NCBI RefSeq assembly: GCF_003334255.1
Contig: NZ_QOWU01000008.1
Direction: 5' to 3' (one strand)
Length of the DNA stretch: 64,000 bases
DNA from: Escherichia coli
Lineage (GTDB): Bacteria > Pseudomonadota > Gammaproteobacteria > Enterobacterales > Enterobacteriaceae
Shown here: one piece after another, positions 695 to 64,000 of the stretch
Layout of the letters: each line of letters begins with the position of its first letter
Position numbering within the stretch: position 1 is the first letter of the stretch
Notes under the pieces: generated by a model
Told to the model about the DNA's origin: nothing
The model's input: the letters and a program-made list of their open reading frames with translations, nothing else
Database searches by the model: none
Translations under genes and position numbers: made by a program

Positions 695-776
695 CTTTTC
701 ACCAAAAAGTAGTCAAATTCACCACGCCCTGCGCACCGTCGCGGGGCGTTTTGCTGTTAAATCAATAGATTATTTT

Positions 777-791
777 TGGCATGATTCTTGT
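777..791 (+). promoter_or_regulatory. candidate sigma54 (-24/-12) promoter for pspG: TGGCAT-N5-TTGT
   Basis: Motif TGGCATGATTCTTGT about 37 bp upstream of the pspG ATG; GG..GT spacing as in the pspA sigma54 promoter; an IHF-like motif AATCAATAGATTA sits at 760..772. Confidence 0.45.
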
Positions 792-827
792 AATGCCAGC
801 AAGAGATTTCATATTTGGGAGAGCATC

Positions 828-1070
828 ATGCTGGAACTACTTTTTGTGATTGGCTTTTTTGTCATGCTGATGGTCACCGGCGTTTCGTTGCTGGGCATTA
901 TCGCCGCGCTGGTTGTGGCGACGGCCATTATGTTCCTCGGCGGTATGCTGGCATTGATGATTAAGTTGCTGCCGTGGTTACTACTGGCGATTGCGGTGGT
1001 GTGGGTTATTAAGGCGATTAAAGCACCAAAAGTGCCGAAATATCAGCGTTATGACCGCTGGCGTTACTAA
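828..1070 (+). CDS. pspG: phage-shock protein G, small inner-membrane protein (80 aa)
   Basis: Internal ATG of ORF 618..1070; translation MLELLFVIGFFVMLMVTGVSLLG... is hydrophobic and matches PspG; the 5' extension of the track ORF overlaps dusA and was rejected. Confidence 0.8.
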   Translation: MLELLFVIGFFVMLMVTGVSLLGIIAALVVATAIMFLGGMLALMIKLLPWLLLAIAVVWVIKAIKAPKVPKYQRYDRWRY

Positions 1071-1205
1071 GGGATTGTGCGGATGATCACAACCTAAGGT
1101 TTTATCCTTAGAACAAAATAGGAATTGATAATCAAATCTGTCACTATTGCGCCTCTAACAGATTCATCGTGCTGTACCCTACATACAGCCGAACTATAAA
1201 AAGAA

Positions 1206-1228
1206 AGGGCTTCCCAGGTGGAAGCCCT
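1206..1228 (-). terminator. hairpin downstream of qor (AGGGCTTCCcaggtGGAAGCCCT), flanked by A/T runs
   Basis: Perfect inverted repeat immediately 3' of the qor stop codon. Confidence 0.6.
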
Positions 1229-1235
1229 ATTTCTT

Positions 1236-2219
1236 TTATGGAATCAGCAGGCTGGAACCTTGCGTCGCCCGGCTTTCCAGAATCTCATGCGCACGCTGCG
1301 CATCCTTCAGCGGATATTTCTGCTGCTCGGCGACATCGACCTTAATCACACCGCTGGCAATCAAAGAGAACAGTTCATTACTGGCCTCGGTTAATTCCTC
1401 CCGCGTGGTGATATAGCCTTGCAGGGAAGGGCGTGTCACATACAACGAGCCTTTTTGATTGAGAATGCCTAAGTTCACACCGGTAACCGCACCTGATGAG
1501 TTGCCAAAACTGACCATTAAGCCGCGGCGTTGCAGGCAATCCAGCGACCGTTCCCAGGTGTCTCTGCCCACGGAATCGTACACCACGCGCACTTTCTTAC
1601 CGCCGGTGATCTCTTTTAACCGCTCGACCAGATCCTCTTCACGATAGTTAATAACCTGCCACGCGCCCGCTTTTAGCGCGCTTTGCGCTTTTTGCGCGGT
1701 TCCTACGGTGCCGATAAGTTTCGCGCCCAGGGCTTTTGCCCACTGGCAGGCAATTAAGCCAACGCCGCCAGCCGCTGCGTGGAACAGGAACTGTTCATCG
1801 GGTTTAATTTCATAGGTTTTGCGCAGCAGATAATAAACCGTTAAGCCTTTCAGGAAGGATGCCGCAGCTTGCTCAAAAGAAATTGCCGCAGGCAGAATCG
1901 CCGCTTTATCCGCAATAATGTTATGCACAGAGCTGTAAGCGCCTAACGCCGACTGCGCATAGACTACACGATCGCCTGCCTTAATATGCTTTACACCACT
2001 GCCGACTTTACTCACGATGCCTGCTGCTTCGGTGCCTAATCCGCTGGGTAGCGATGGCGGCGGGTAAAGGCCGCTGCGGATATATGTGTCGATAAAATTG
2101 ATGCCGATGGCTTTATTTTCGACCTGGATTTCATTCTCCGCCGGATCGGCAGGAGTGAACTCTACGGCTTGAAGTACTTCCGGGCCACCGTGCTTGTGAA
2201 ATTCAATTCGTGTTGCCAT
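1236..2219 (-). CDS. qorA: NADPH:quinone oxidoreductase (zeta-crystallin family), 327 aa
   Basis: ORF 1236..2327 trimmed to MATRIEFHKHGG...; medium-chain dehydrogenase fold with AAGGVG motif. Confidence 0.9.
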   Translation of the reverse strand: MATRIEFHKHGGPEVLQAVEFTPADPAENEIQVENKAIGINFIDTYIRSGLYPPPSLPSGLGTEAAGIVSKVGSGVKHIKAGDRVVYAQSALGAYSSVHNIIADKAAILPAAISFEQAAASFLKGLTVYYLLRKTYEIKPDEQFLFHAAAGGVGLIACQWAKALGAKLIGTVGTAQKAQSALKAGAWQVINYREEDLVERLKEITGGKKVRVVYDSVGRDTWERSLDCLQRRGLMVSFGNSSGAVTGVNLGILNQKGSLYVTRPSLQGYITTREELTEASNELFSLIASGVIKVDVAEQQKYPLKDAQRAHEILESRATQGSSLLIP

Positions 2220-6328: not shown

Positions 6329-6796
6329 AGTGAAATTAAACTGTCGTCGCTTTCACTCTTTCTTTATAGATGATTTTTTTGATGCCATCGTTCTACGTGA
6401 GAGATAATAAACGTTGTTAGTTCTTTTATTGTTAAGCTTATCCCAATTATCTGGAATTCCTTATCCTGTTTTTTTGGGTGGAGTAATAATTTCTGCACAT
6501 CTAACCATTATTAAATTTAATAATAAGTATCGGGTTTGTTACGATAGAATATTTCTATATCCTCAAGAATATGCTTTGCCTTATTGCCTGTGACTTTCTG
6601 AGATTCAATTATAGTATCGTTAAATTCTAATGTTAAAGAGAACTCTTTTTTCCGCTTTGTGTAAGTTTAACCTTATATTGATTACCAATATCAAATAAAA
6701 AGGTCCTGTAATGAGAATAATCACCTTTAACCTCCTCGGCAAAACAGCAAAGCGTGCAAATATACATAAAGTCTTTCTTACCCCTGATTTTGTTAA

Positions 6797-13458: not shown

Positions 13459-15045
13459 ATGAGTCATCGTGCACGACACCAATTACTGGCGTTGCCGGGC
13501 ATTATCTTTTTAGTTCTCTTTCCCATCATTCTTTCGCTATGGATTGCCTTCCTTTGGGCAAAATCAGAAGTGAATAATCAGCTCCGAACCTTTGCTCAAC
13601 TGGCACTGGATAAATCCGAGCTGGTCATTCGCCAGGCAGATTTAGTGAGCGATGCAGCTGAACGCTATCAGGGGCAAGTTTGCACTCCAGCCCATCAAAA
13701 GCGAATGTTGAATATTATTCGTGGCTATCTTTATATTAATGAATTGATCTATGCCCGTGATAACCATTTTTTATGCTCATCGCTGATAGCGCCTGTAAAC
13801 GGCTATACGATTGCACCGGCCGATTATAAGCGTGAACCTAACGTTTCTATCTATTATTACCGCGATACGCCTTTTTTCTCTGGCTATAAAATGACCTATA
13901 TGCAGCGGGGAAATTATGTGGCGGTTATCAACCCTCTCTTCTGGAGTGAAGTGATGTCTGATGACCCGACATTGCAATGGGGTGTGTATGATACGGTGAC
14001 GAAAACCTTTTTCTCGTTAAGCAAAGAGGCCTCGGCAGCAACGTTTTCTCCGCTGATTCATTTGAAGGATTTAACCGTACAAAGAAATGGCTATTTATAT
14101 GCGACAGTTTATTCGACAAAACGCCCAATTGCAGCCATTGTTGCGACTTCATATCAACGTCTTATAACCCATTTTTATAATCATCTTATTTTTGCGTTGC
14201 CCGCCGGTATTTTGGGGAGTCTTGTTCTGCTATTACTCTGGCTACGTATTCGACAAAACTATTTATCTCCCAAACGTAAATTGCAACGCGCCCTCGAAAA
14301 ACATCAACTTTGTCTTTATTACCAGCCAATAATCGATATCAAAACAGAAAAATGTATCGGCGCTGAAGCGTTGTTACGTTGGCCTGGTGAGCAGGGGCAA
14401 ATAATGAATCCGGCAGAGTTTATTCCGCTGGCAGAAAAGGAGGGGATGATAGAACAGATAACTGATTATGTTATTGATAATGTCTTCCGCGATCTGGGCG
14501 ATTACCTGGCAACACATGCAGATCGCTATGTTTCTATTAACCTGTCGGCCTCCGATTTTCATACGTCACGGTTGATAGCGCGAATCAATCAGAAAACAGA
14601 GCAATACGCGGTGCGTCCGCAGCAAATTAAATTTGAAGTGACTGAGCATGCATTTCTTGATGTTGACAAAATGACGCCGATTATTCTGGCTTTCCGCCAG
14701 GCAGGTTACGAAGTGGCAATTGATGATTTTGGTATTGGCTACTCTAACTTGCATAACCTTAAATCATTGAATGTCGATATTTTGAAAATCGACAAATCGT
14801 TTGTTGAAACGCTGACCACCCACAAAACCAGTCATTTGATTGCGGAACACATCATCGAGCTGGCGCACAGCCTGGGGTTAAAAACGATCGCTGAAGGCGT
14901 CGAAACTGAGGAGCAGGTTAACTGGCTGCGCAAACGCGGCGTGCGCTATTGCCAGGGATGGTTCTTTGCGAAGGCGATGCCGCCGCAGGTGTTTATGCAA
15001 TGGATGGAGCAATTACCCGCGCGGGAGTTAACGCGCGGGCAATAA
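13459..15045 (+). CDS. pdeC: c-di-GMP phosphodiesterase with periplasmic sensor and EAL domain (528 aa)
   Basis: N-terminal TM helix, second TM helix, then an EAL domain (LYYQPIIDI ... EALLRW ... [10 protein letters not shown]). Confidence 0.85.
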
Positions 15046-15047
15046 AA

Positions 15048-15371
15048 TTACAGGCGGTGGCGATAATCGCTGGGAGTGCGATCAAACTGCCGACGGAAAA
15101 CGCGGGAGAAGGTCTGCTGCGAGACATAACCCAGGTCCATTGCGATATCAAAAATCGGACGCTCGGTGGTGCGCAACTCAACGGCGGCCAGTAACAGGCG
15201 GCGTTGGCGAATGTAATCGCCAAGCGTCTGATGCGTCACCGTGCGGAACATTCGTTGCAAGTACCACTTTGAATAGCCTGATTTTTTTGCGACTACATCA
15301 ATGTTAAGCGGCTGGTCAATATGCTCGTCAATCCATGCGATAAGATCCTGAATAATTTTCTGATGGGACAT
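15048..15371 (-). CDS. soxS: AraC-family superoxide-response activator SoxS (107 aa)
   Basis: Translation MSHQKIIQDLIAWIDEHIDQPLNIDVVAKKSGYSKWYLQRMFR with two HTH motifs. Confidence 0.95.
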   Translation of the reverse strand: MSHQKIIQDLIAWIDEHIDQPLNIDVVAKKSGYSKWYLQRMFRTVTHQTLGDYIRQRRLLLAAVELRTTERPIFDIAMDLGYVSQQTFSRVFRRQFDRTPSDYRHRL

Positions 15372-15427
15372 AAATCTGCCTCTTTTCAGTGTTCAGTTCG
15401 TTAATTCATCTGTTGGGGAGTATAATT

Positions 15428-15445
15428 CCTCAAGTTAACTTGAGG
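15428..15445. promoter_or_regulatory. SoxR operator within the soxS promoter (perfect 18-bp palindrome)
   Basis: CCTCAAGTTAACTTGAGG in the divergent soxS-soxR spacer. Confidence 0.9.
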
Positions 15446-15456
15446 TAAAGCGATTT

Positions 15457-15921
15457 ATGGAAAAGAAATTACCCCGCATTAAAGCGCTGCTAACCCCCGG
15501 CGAAGTGGCGAAACGCAGCGGTGTGGCGGTATCGGCGCTGCATTTCTATGAAAGTAAAGGGTTGATTACCAGTATCCGTAACAGCGGCAATCAGCGGCGA
15601 TATAAACGTGATGTGTTGCGATATGTTGCAATTATCAAAATTGCTCAGCGTATTGGCATTCCGCTGGCGACCATTGGTGAAGCGTTTGGCGTGTTGCCCG
15701 AAGGGCATACGTTAAGTGCGAAAGAGTGGAAACAGCTTTCGTCCCAATGGCGAGAAGAGTTGGATCGGCGCATTCATACCTTAGTGGCGCTGCGTGACGA
15801 ACTGGACGGATGTATTGGTTGTGGCTGCCTTTCGCGCAGTGATTGCCCGTTGCGTAACCCGGGCGACCGCTTAGGAGAAGAAGGTACCGGCGCACGCTTG
15901 CTGGAAGATGAACAAAACTAA
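15457..15921 (+). CDS. soxR: MerR-family redox sensor SoxR with [2Fe-2S] cluster (154 aa)
   Basis: MerR-type HTH N-terminus and C-terminal [12 protein letters not shown] cysteine cluster. Confidence 0.95.
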
Positions 15922-16054
15922 AGCGCCACAAGGGCGCTTTAGTTTGTTTTCCGGTCTTTGTCTTTCTCTCTATCCCGCTGGTACACAGGAGGGTTTCCCC
16001 CGACGTCAACACACCTCATTCGAGCACGTGGTGGAGGTTCCGGTTGGTGTTGAT
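15915..16054 (-). ncRNA. ryjA: candidate small RNA RyjA/SraL, convergent with soxR
   Basis: Placed from recollection that K-12 carries this sRNA just 3' of soxR on the opposite strand, sharing the terminator hairpin; not verifiable from sequence alone. Confidence 0.35.
15921..15950. terminator. hairpin at the soxR 3' end (AAAGCGCCacaaGGGCGCTTT), likely bidirectional
   Basis: Inverted repeat overlapping the soxR stop, followed by a T-rich tract. Confidence 0.7.
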
Positions 16055-16196
16055 GCTTTAATTGTATGTCACCGACGTTTCTTCGCCAGTGTAAAAGTAT
16101 ACTTTTTAACCGCAATATTTTTGTCATCTCAGACGATTTTTTATCGCAATCCTGAACGGTATACGGCTCGATAACGCTGCAATCTTGCGCACCGAC

Positions 16197-16213
16197 GATA
16201 ACGTTTGCGCATC
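16197..16213. promoter_or_regulatory. PurR-box-like motif (reverse complement GCGCAAACGTTATC) upstream of ghxP
   Basis: Similarity to the PurR operator core CGCAAACGTTT; a second AAACGTTTGC copy at 16341..16350 and a weaker one near 16397. Confidence 0.3.
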
Positions 16214-16466
16214 AATTGCCTGGTTTTTCATCGTCAAGACAATAAAAGAGAAAAAAGCAGCAAACTTCGGTTGAAAAAGCCGCTATGATCGCCGGATAAT
16301 CGTTTGCTTTTTTTACCACCCGTTTTGTATGCGCGGAGCTAAACGTTTGCTTTTTTGCGACGCAGCAAATTGTCGCAAACCTGGAGCAGGAAGATAACGT
16401 TTCGCTGGCAGGGGATTGTCCGCCACGCATCTTGACGAAAATTAAACTCTCAGGGGATGTTTTCTT

Positions 16467-17868: not shown

Positions 17869-17966
17869 TCCGCACATTGTGTGAGCTTTTGCGATATTCT
17901 GAAAAAATGAGAATTCAGGCATAACGTCTTTCTCAGATCATAAAAAACATCGCAAACAGGGAACGC

Positions 17967-23278: not shown

Positions 23279-23372
<94 letters not shown>

Positions 23373-33814: not shown

Positions 33815-34310
33815 TGTGAATGCCTGATGCGACGCTTGCCGCGTCTTATCAGGCCTACGCCAGACAGCGCAATAGCCTGATTTAGCGTGATTTTGTAGGT
33901 CGGATAAGGCGTTTATGCCGCATCCGACATCAACGCCTGATGCGACGCTTAACGCGTCTTATCAGGCCTACGCCAGACAGCGCAATAGCCTGATTTAGCG
34001 TGATTTTGTAGGTCGGATAAGGCGTTTACGCCGCATCCGACATCAACGCCTGCTGCGACGCTTGCCGCGTCTTATCAGGCCTACGCCAGACAGCGCAATA
34101 GCCTGATTTAGCGTGATTTTGTAGGTCGGATAAGGCGTTTATGCCGCATCCGACATCAACGCCTGATGCGACGCTTAACGCGTCTTATCAGGCCTACGCC
34201 AGACAGCGCAATAGCCTGATTTAGCGTGATTTTGTAGGTCGGATAAGGCGTTTACGCCGCATCCGACATCAATGCCTGATGCGACGCTTGCCGCGTCTTA
34301 TCAGGCCTAT
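33815..34310. repeat. REP/BIME cluster: about 4.5 tandem units of 113 bp, each holding two REP palindromes
   Basis: CGTCTTATCAGGCCTAC recurs at 33842, 33955, 34068, 34181 and 34294 (period 113 bp). Confidence 0.9.
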
Positions 34311-35094: not shown

Positions 35095-37242
35095 TTACGC
35101 CAGTGCCGCTTCGCGCAGGCGAGTTTTCAACTTGTTGTACTCGTCAATCACGTACTGCTCGGCGGCGCGCTGATCGGCGATCGGCTCGACGCGAACGGCG
35201 CAGTATTTGTACTCCGGCGTTTTCGTAATCGGGCTTAAGTTTTCGGTAACCAGCTCGTTACAGGCACCAATCCACCACTGGTAGGTCATGTAAATCGCCC
35301 CTTTGTTCGGACGATCGCTGACCTGCGCACGGGTGATAATTTTGCCTTTACGCGAGTGCACCCAAACCAATGCCTCATCTTCAATACCCAGACGTTTGGC
35401 GTCTTCGGTATTGATTTGTGCGTAGCCAGGTTCATCAGCCAGCGCCGCCAGTGCCGCACAGTTACCGGTCATCGAACGGCAAGAGTAGTGACCAACTTCA
35501 CGCACCGTTGACAGTACCATCGGGTACTCGTCGGTGAGTTTGTCGATTGGCGCTACCCAGTCGCAGGTGAAGAACTGCGCCAGACCGTTCGGGGTATCAA
35601 ACTTCTCTTTAAACAGATAAGAAGTCCCCTGATCGGCATCTGAAGTATCGCGGCAAGGCCACTGAATGAAGCCCAGTTCGCCCATTTTCTCGTAAGTCGC
35701 ACCGTAGAAATCCGGGCACAGATGACGCAACTCATCCCAGATCTCCTGGGTGTTGTTGTAGTGCATCGGATAACCCATACGGGTGGCGATTTCACTGATG
35801 ATTTGCCAGTCCGTTTTCAGATCCCATTTCGGTTCAACCGCCTTGAAGAAACGCTGGAAGCCACGGTCAGCCGCAGTAAACACGCCTTCATGCTCGCCCC
35901 ACGACGTTGACGGTAAAATAACATCCGCCGCCGACGCGGTTTTGGTCATAAAGATGTCCTGAACGATAACCAGTTCCAGATCTTCAAAGGCTTTACGTAC
36001 TGCCGACAGCTCCGCGTCAGTTTGTAGCGGATCTTCGCCCATAATGTACGCGGCACGCACTTCGCCATGCGCTGCGCGGTGCGGCAGCTCGCTGATGCGA
36101 TAGCCGGTATGCGCTGGCAGGCTTTCCACGCCCCAGGCTTTGGCGAATTTCTCGCGGTTAGCCGGATCTTTCACGTACTGGTATCCCGGATACGTATCCG
36201 GCAGCGCGCCCATATCGCAGGCACCCTGAACGTTGTTCTGACCACGAACCGGGTTAACACCCGCATGCGGCTTACCGAGGTTACCGGTCAGCATCGCGAG
36301 GCTGGTCAGAGAACGCACGGTTTCCACGCCCTGGTAGAACTGGGTTACACCCATGCCCCACAGGATGGCGGCGCTTTTCGCCTGGGCATACATCCGTGCC
36401 GCCTGACGAATCTCACTGGCGCTGACGCCGGTGATATCTTCAACCGACTCCGGCGTGTAGCCTTCAACGATTTTACGATACTCTTCAAAGCCTTCTGTAC
36501 GTGAAGCGACGAACGCTTTGTCGTACAGATTTTCTTCAATAATGACATGGCCCATCGCATTCAACAGCGCGATGTTCGAGCCGTTTTTCAGTGCAATGTG
36601 CATGTCAGCAATGCGCGCGGTTTCAATTTTGCGCGGATCGCAGACGATAATTTTCGCCCCGTTACGTTTAGCGTTAATTACGTGATTCGCCACGATTGGG
36701 TGGGAATCCGCCGGGTTGTACCCGAAAACGAACACTAAATCGGTATTATCAATTTCGTTAATAGCATTGCTCATTGCGCCATTACCGACCGATTGGTGCA
36801 GACCTGCAACCGATGGGCCGTGTCAGACACGAGCGCAGCAGTCAACGTTATTGGTACCAATAACGGCGCGCGCAAATTTTTGCATTACATAGTTGGTTTC
36901 GTTACCCGTACCACGCGAGGAGCCGGTCGTCTGGATGGCATCCGGACCGTACTTCTCTTTGATGGCGCTCAGGCGCTCGGCAACGTAATTCAGTGCCTCA
37001 TCCCAGGAAACAGGTTCGAGTTTGCCGCCACGCTGGCGACGGATCATGGGGGTTTTCAGGCGCGGGGTCAGGATCTGGGTATCGTTAATGAAGTCCCAGC
37101 CATAATAACCCTTCAGACACAGGGTACCCTGGTTGGTTTTCCCCTGCGCTGCCTCCGCCCGGACGATTTTGCCGTTATCGACGACCAGGTTGATTTTGCA
37201 ACCTGATGCGCAATAGGGGCAAACCGTGACGACTTTTTTCAT
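35095..37242 (-). CDS. fdhF: formate dehydrogenase H, selenocysteine-containing molybdoenzyme (715 aa)
   Basis: Track ORFs 36823..37242 and 35095..36774 are one reading frame joined by TGA at 36823..36825; N-terminal Fe-S motif CPYCASGC; 2148 nt is 716 codons. Confidence 0.95.
36780..36822 (-). promoter_or_regulatory. SECIS recoding element directly 3' of the fdhF UGA codon (extent approximate)
   Basis: Bacterial SECIS lies immediately downstream of the Sec codon (established); the stretch after TGA is GC-rich and hairpin-prone. Confidence 0.65.
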
Positions 37243-61120: not shown

Positions 61121-61208
61121 TGTAGGCCGGATAAGGTGCTTGCACCGCATCCGGCATCAACGCCTGCACATTGTCGGATGCGACGCCGGGGCGTCTTATC
61201 CGACCTAC
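61121..61208. repeat. pair of REP elements between phnD and phnE
   Basis: GTAGGCCGGATAAGGTGCTTGCACCGCATCCGGC and GTCGGATGCGACGCCGGGGCGTCTTATCCGACCTAC. Confidence 0.8.

Positions 61209-63649: not shown

Positions 63650-64000
<351 letters not shown>

Follow-up and report, generated by a model that had tools for sequence, protein, structure and literature searches.

The soxS-soxR-sraL locus of Escherichia coli: a hairpin that ends the small RNA SraL and probably also the convergent soxR transcript

The divergent soxS and soxR genes of Escherichia coli form a textbook redox-sensing circuit, and the small RNA SraL (also RyjA), which converges on soxR, has been annotated since 2001. A hairpin lies across the soxR stop codon, and the locus therefore raises the question of whether a single structure ends both transcripts or belongs to only one of them. 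We examined a 64,000-nt stretch of E. coli DNA (GCF_003334255.1, contig NZ_QOWU01000008.1), hereafter the window, of which positions 14900-16400 were read in detail. Over these 1.5 kb the sequence matches E. coli K-12 MG1655 and other strains at 100% identity, and it is present in 5426 of 5426 complete E. coli genomes. Identity of the window to NC_000913.3 extends from 13488 to ~17907, with a coordinate offset of 4262012. An A-run in the ghxP-yjcE spacer (window 17902-17907) has six residues here and seven in MG1655, and the offset to MG1655 shifts by 112 bp somewhere between window positions 17908 and 36376; hence there is at least one further indel relative to MG1655, perhaps in a REP cluster. 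We consider it very probable that this is the soxS-soxR-sraL locus in its canonical E. coli K-12 form, and we are close to certain that soxS, soxR, the SoxR box, sraL and the hairpin are as assigned here.

The two protein-coding genes are as follows.

15048..15371, minus strand: soxS coding sequence, 107 aa, AraC/XylS-type activator of the superoxide regulon (open reading frame, NCBIfam, RefSeq annotation)
15457..15921, plus strand: soxR coding sequence, 154 aa, MerR-family [2Fe-2S] redox sensor (open reading frame, NCBIfam, PDB match)

Both products scored above the cutoffs of their NCBIfam equivalog models: SoxS matched NF007584 with 228 bits (cutoff 174), and SoxR matched TIGR01950 with 248 bits (cutoff 117). 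SoxR also matched PDB entry 2ZHG_A, from a SoxR-DNA crystal structure, over its full length (1-154/154, E 2.5e-101), as it did 2ZHH. All four cluster cysteines (C119, C122, C124 and C130) are there, in a CX2CXCX5C [2Fe-2S] motif that spans residues 119-130. The soxR gene adjoins the SoxR operator and diverges from soxS across an 85-bp spacer; the region singled out by the first-pass annotation began at 15372, the first base past the soxS start codon. The spacer contains four elements.

15428..15445, no strand assigned: SoxR operator, perfect 18-bp dyad CCTCAAGTTAACTTGAGG, single SoxR dimer site (sequence scan and literature)
15444..15449, minus strand: soxS promoter -35 hexamer TTTACC (sequence; published architecture, PMC4411124, PMC12825309)
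15419..15424, minus strand: soxS promoter -10 hexamer TATACT (sequence)
15421..15426, plus strand: soxR promoter -10 hexamer TATAAT (sequence)

The first-pass annotation had placed a perfect 18-bp palindrome at 15428..15445, in the soxS promoter. We found the dyad at exactly these positions, with 0 mismatches, as a gapless 9+9 perfect inverted repeat, and it falls between the -35 TTTACC and the -10 TATACT of the soxS promoter. It is the sole match to this sequence in the 64 kb even with two mismatches allowed, none was found in 100 shuffles, and it agrees with the published E. coli SoxR box at 18 of 18 bases. Of perfect palindromes of 18 bp, the window has three, whereas mononucleotide shuffles averaged 0.19. 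A perfect AT-only palindrome of 18 bp, ATTATTAAATTTAATAAT, lies at 6507-6524 in the tyrB-yjbS intergenic region. Within the fdhF coding sequence (minus strand) we detected a perfect 20-bp palindrome, CGTTATTGGTACCAATAACG, at 36846-36865, ~15 nt from the Rfam SECIS_2 element of fdhF (36776..36830, minus strand) and on its mRNA 5' side.

The soxS -35 hexamer and the SoxR box share two bases, the last two of the former and the first two of the latter, and the dyad lies inside a supra-optimal promoter spacer of 19 bp (TCAAGTTAACTTGAGGAAT). On the plus strand, TATAAT overlaps the soxS -10 hexamer by 4 bp, giving a shared -10. The dyad also extends into the divergent soxR promoter. From its distance to this hexamer (~7 nt), the soxR transcription start would be predicted at ~15432-15434, inside the SoxR box, which fits the published self-repression by start-site masking. 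The same 18-mer has been quoted as the E. coli SoxR box, between -35 and -10 elements separated by 19 bp (PMC4411124), and a 2026 study showed that PsoxS/soxR is bidirectional, its two promoters sharing one -10 (PMC12825309). In that study, EMSA showed that SoxR binding needs the complete dyad, a single site, and EMSA together with in vitro transcription showed redox-dependent activation of soxS by SoxR. SoxR also directly blocks the soxR promoter, in all likelihood because it masks the start site on that side (PMC12825309). With respect to this MerR-type activation, the window has the same dyad, position, 19-bp spacer and overlapping divergent TATAAT; we found no difference from the published SoxR box, of which the window site is the type example. 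The 85-bp spacer serves as a bidirectional promoter with two overlapping -10 hexamers, in which one SoxR dimer occupies the 18-bp dyad inside the over-long soxS spacer. Oxidised SoxR distorts the DNA such that the -35 and -10 elements become usable for RNA polymerase, and soxS is transcribed. Since the dyad covers the predicted soxR start, bound SoxR also represses soxR.

On the other side of soxR, the sRNA and its promoter occupy the minus strand.

15914..16054, minus strand: sraL (ryjA) sRNA, 141 nt (Rfam RF01408, NC_000913.3 annotation, covariation)
16061-16066, minus strand: sraL promoter -10 element TACAAT (sequence, conserved block)
16058-16060, minus strand: TAA after the sraL -10, a sigma-S-type extended -10 feature (sequence, conserved block)
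16084..16089, minus strand: putative sraL -35 element CTGGCG, 17-bp spacer, weakly conserved (sequence and alignment)

A covariance-model search at 15915..16054 had been named in advance as the check on the sRNA. Scanning the whole window with Rfam models at gathering thresholds gave a decisive, full-length match to sraL (RF01408) at 15914..16054 on the minus strand (153.3 bits against a gathering threshold of 39; model positions 1-142/142; E = 1e-34). The first-pass annotation had also named RyjA/SraL, convergent with soxR at its 3' side, as the small RNA of this position in K-12. The ncRNA ryjA (b4459) of NC_000913.3, at 4277926..4278066 on the complement strand, occupies the same bases, since the identity of the two sequences and the offset of 4262012 place it at 15914..16054. 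Thus, the sRNA is present as proposed; the word "putative" was too cautious, because the sRNA is already established in Rfam and in NC_000913.3. In the PGAP RefSeq annotation of another MG1655 record the sRNA is absent, whereas the curated NC_000913.3 has it. Elsewhere in the window, Rfam naRNA4 (REP/BIME-type) had nine matches, within 23292-23362, 33898-34307, 61125-61205 and 63681-63957; among them are four in tandem at 33898-34307 (plus strand) and, at 63681-63957 (minus strand), three at 100-bp intervals.

For comparison across species, we retrieved 90 loci, one per species, from ~25 enterobacterial genera, using an sraL-core DNA pattern. Relative to position 16054, TACAAT lies at -12..-7 and TAA at -6..-4, which fits a sigma-S-type TAYRMT followed by TAA. 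This block is kept in 82 species and the -35 region is not, a pattern that fits sigma-S promoters; sigma-S promoter features of sraL have been described (PMC3753932). At promoter position -13, E. coli has an A rather than the commoner C. The window copy is the SraL/RyjA gene of RF01408, with the same soxR-convergent synteny and the same TACAAT and TAA, and nothing of substance differs apart from the A at -13. A perfect 14-bp palindrome, AAAAGTATACTTTT, at 16093-16106 (about -39 to -52 of the sraL promoter) reads AAAAAGCGTCTTTT in another E. coli strain (L047); as it is not conserved even within E. coli, it is probably no regulatory site. Beyond the promoter, a gene of glutathione-S-transferase (GST) type lies between sraL and ghxP in 68 of the 90 species (STM4267 in Salmonella; PMC3753932), covering most of the other genera. 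The Escherichia spacer between these genes, 412 bp at window positions 16055-16466, has no GST gene, and tblastn gave no trace of a remnant between sraL and ghxP in the window. We rejected a PurR-type box upstream of ghxP (ACGATAACGTTTGCGC, 16195..16210, 3 mismatches) as not significant, since 49 of 100 shuffles had such a match. Two further AAACGTTTGC-like motifs lie at ~16300-16350.

We aligned 83 distinct sraL sequences, from which RNAalifold recovered an Rfam-like fold. Across these orthologues 99.1% of cells were paired, and seven pairs had double changes. Compensatory double changes in the 5' helix affected four pairs, in 17, 24, 6 and 18 sequences. The covariation score was 0.117, compared with 0.085 for shuffles (0/500 reached the observed value) and ≤0.057 for slid controls. 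Nine of the 12 pairs of the terminator stem never vary among the 83 sequences (~25 genera), and G-U intermediates are almost absent; being invariant, this stem is uninformative on covariation. The fold of the whole RNA had a z-score of only -1.94. Because this is weak alone, the case for an sRNA rests on the covariance model and on covariation.

A minus-strand transcript at this position might instead encode a small protein, given that SraL contains a 26-codon AUG...UAA frame (MRCVDVGGNPPVYQRDREKDKDRKTN) that is open in E. coli and forms part of a 62-aa mechanical open reading frame at 15939..16127 (minus strand). The frame is not conserved, however: an in-frame ATG is found in only 18 of the 83 distinct orthologues, the lengths vary, and 35 of the 83 have no stop within the RNA. 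Moreover, invariant nucleotides run through the would-be third codon positions, for example 16 contiguous nucleotides at G51-C66, and invariance at such wobble positions indicates constraint at the RNA level. We therefore rejected the coding reading, which in our judgement has next to no chance of being right.

Previous studies described SraL as an RpoS-dependent, ~140-nt, Hfq-associated RNA that is most abundant in stationary phase and base-pairs with tig to repress it (PMC3753932). SraL also protects the rho mRNA from premature termination (reviewed in PMC6582626). Hfq stabilises it ~3-fold, PAP I and RNase III affect it (PMC2190706), and it is polyadenylated in E. coli (PMC5389530); most of the functional work was done in Salmonella rather than E. 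coli. Taken together with the promoter described above, the 141-nt SraL/RyjA is made in stationary phase from a sigma-S-type promoter, on the opposite strand downstream of soxR. It is Hfq-associated, Hfq-stabilised and polyadenylated, and its targets in trans in Salmonella are tig (repression) and rho (anti-termination).

The structure at which soxR and sraL meet comprises two elements.

15915..15945, no strand assigned: hairpin, SraL intrinsic terminator and probable soxR terminator (repeats, folding, terminator scan)
15938..15952, plus strand: U-rich tract of the soxR transcript after the GC core (TTTAGTTTGTTTTCC), the probable soxR mRNA 3'-end region

A repeat finder identified perfect 13-nt arms at 15915-15927 and 15933-15945, separated by a 5-nt loop. 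The soxR stop codon, TAA at 15919-15921, sits inside the 5' arm, and the hairpin begins 4 nt before it. The first-pass annotation was right that a hairpin overlaps the soxR stop, but its bounds of 15921..15941 were ~5 nt too tight on each side. With the SraL 3' end annotated at 15914 (NC_000913.3), the overlap between SraL and soxR takes in 8 nt of soxR coding sequence. Folding of the hairpin as RNA gave -22.2 kcal/mol on the plus strand (z = -5.4) and -20.7 kcal/mol on the minus strand (z = -4.9), and all 200 shuffles were less stable on either strand. If counting starts at the GC core, U occupies 9 of 12 positions downstream and A 9 of 12 upstream on both strands; such symmetric tracts are the layout expected of a bidirectional intrinsic terminator. 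A strict terminator scan, which calls for at least five T in the eight positions after the full stem, flagged the hairpin on the minus strand only. The plus strand has four of eight T, and it escapes the flag because the full 13-bp stem takes up the first U's there.

Across the 90 species loci, soxR is adjacent to and convergent with sraL in 89. The hairpin, AAACTAAAGCGCC...GGCGCTTTAGTTT, is almost invariant, while the soxR stop moves. We tallied the position of the stop in all 90 sequences, the window copy included. It lies inside the 5' arm of the hairpin in 13 (Escherichia and some Citrobacter) and in the loop or 3' arm in three (Kosakonia, in which the frame crosses the stem to a TAG). In 36 sequences it is 0-10 nt upstream of the hairpin, in 26 it is 11-50 nt upstream, and in 12 it is more than 50 nt and up to ~520 nt upstream, often with REP-like insertions. 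In the Kosakonia species concerned (L011, L039 and L071), the sRNA terminator thus supplies the final ~9 codons of soxR, with the TAG in its 3' arm. In Citrobacter sedlakii NBRC 105722 (L036:698-1742), soxRS is absent from the usual site. There, a 303-aa LysR-family open reading frame (698..1609, plus strand) ends at the same AAC-TAA in the arm of the sraL terminator, and sraL occupies 1600..1742 on the minus strand. Homologues of this open reading frame in other species lie several kb off, beyond ghxP, which indicates that, through a rearrangement, a new convergent gene became joined to the sRNA hairpin. Since the soxR stop varies in its placement relative to the hairpin, which is kept even where soxR is missing, we conclude that the hairpin is primarily a feature of sraL. 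The convergent genes, soxR at variable distance and the LysR-family gene in C. sedlakii, simply run into it.

Does transcription of soxR nonetheless end at this hairpin? SraL ends in the 13-bp stem and the U-run that follows, and on the other strand an equally stable hairpin with an equally U-rich tract makes a bidirectional terminator the most likely arrangement for this convergent pair. We put the probability that the hairpin is a shared, bidirectional intrinsic terminator, at which soxR transcription ends, at roughly two in three. The first-pass annotation had suggested a terminator common to soxR and SraL; given U at 9 of 12 positions on both strands, this is plausible, and it is already in print, since Viegas et al. 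2007 stated that the SraL terminator overlaps that of soxR (PMC2190706). A less probable reading, although one that merits consideration, is that the hairpin ends SraL only and that soxR reads through antisense to sraL, so that the sharing is purely geometric; soxR transcripts would then end further downstream, by Rho action or by processing. The scan result on the minus strand alone is consistent with this, as is the fact that the hairpin sequence tracks sraL and not soxR, whose stop varies from inside the 3' arm to ~520 nt upstream and which is replaced by a LysR-type gene in L036. A soxR 3' end is likewise absent from the Term-seq tables of Adams et al. 2021, the supplements of which contained no soxR, ryjA or sraL entry and no coordinate that starts with 427792-427797. 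Full-text literature searching for soxR together with a bidirectional terminator returned one unrelated plasmid-design mention only. However, read-through is disfavoured by a plus-strand hairpin as stable as that of the minus strand (-22.2 versus -20.7 kcal/mol), followed by UUUAGUUUGUUU, in which the count of 9/12 U equals that on the SraL side. In addition, the soxR stop is more than 25 nt before the hairpin core in 26 species, and in only two of these does another terminator-like hairpin lie between; its absence from the remaining 24 mildly supports the notion that the sraL hairpin serves soxR too. Viegas et al. 2007 also treated the two terminators as overlapping (PMC2190706).

Shared termination is compatible with a further possibility, that the 3' overlap is itself regulatory. 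Here, SraL and soxR mRNA would form a duplex through their complementary 3' ends (~40 nt, 15914 to ~15955), which RNase III would cleave; in a variant, convergent transcription would interfere. In both versions, sigma-S induction of SraL would lower soxR mRNA, or the reverse. The inclusion of 8 nt of soxR coding sequence in the overlap favours such a role. Viegas et al. 2007 (PMC2190706) also observed that a longer SraL species builds up without RNase III, and they proposed a cut inside the SraL terminator, the one that overlaps the terminator of soxR. The terminator stem is also far more invariant in sequence than the covarying 5' helix. This invariance could reflect Hfq or 3'-end requirements, or a constraint to fold on two strands: a G-U pair on one strand is C-A on the other, and a hairpin needed both in SraL and in the soxR (or another convergent) transcript therefore cannot pass through G-U. 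Selection on both strands of the stem, with complementary 3' ends that could couple stationary-phase expression of SraL to processing of the soxR 3' end by RNase III, nevertheless seems to us improbable. The invariance of the stem is the same where soxR is near, far or absent, and is thus not explained by soxR coding. Furthermore, in both RNAs the complementary stretch is folded on itself into a very stable hairpin, the targets documented for SraL (tig and rho) are in trans, and our literature search found no experiment linking SraL to soxR levels. We regard a regulatory overlap as unlikely, more so than termination of SraL alone, and retain the shared terminator as the preferred reading.

Bidirectional intrinsic terminators between convergent genes were reportedly found genome-wide in E. 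coli by Ju and colleagues in 2019 (Nat Microbiol). The hairpin studied here resembles these in having a GC core and, counted from that core, flanking A- and T-tracts that would give both transcripts a stem plus a U-run, and in lying between convergent units. It differs in that an sRNA is one of the partners, its terminator also serving as an Hfq-binding 3' module, in that the soxR stop codon lies inside the stem, and in that we infer termination in the soxR direction. GadY, a sigma-S-dependent sRNA that is convergent with gadX and overlaps the gadX 3' end, is said to have been described by Opdyke and colleagues in 2004. In both pairs, a sigma-S-dependent, Hfq-associated sRNA lies opposite the 3' end of a regulator gene, and RNase III is implicated. 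In contrast to SraL, the demonstrated targets of which are in trans, GadY uses its overlap to act in cis on the gadX-gadW mRNA. Unlike that of GadY and gadX, the overlap of SraL and soxR is limited to the terminator hairpin, and an effect on soxR is undocumented.

Every component of this locus, namely the soxRS switch, the SoxR box, SraL and the overlapping terminator, was already known and annotated. The discovery value is accordingly small; what the check adds is that the identification made in the first-pass annotation was exact to the single base, which allows the matter to be closed. What is new is at a small scale: a near-invariant hairpin travels with sraL in 90 species, while the soxR stop drifts. 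The locus thus offers a convenient natural series on the co-evolution of bidirectional terminators and sRNA 3' modules.
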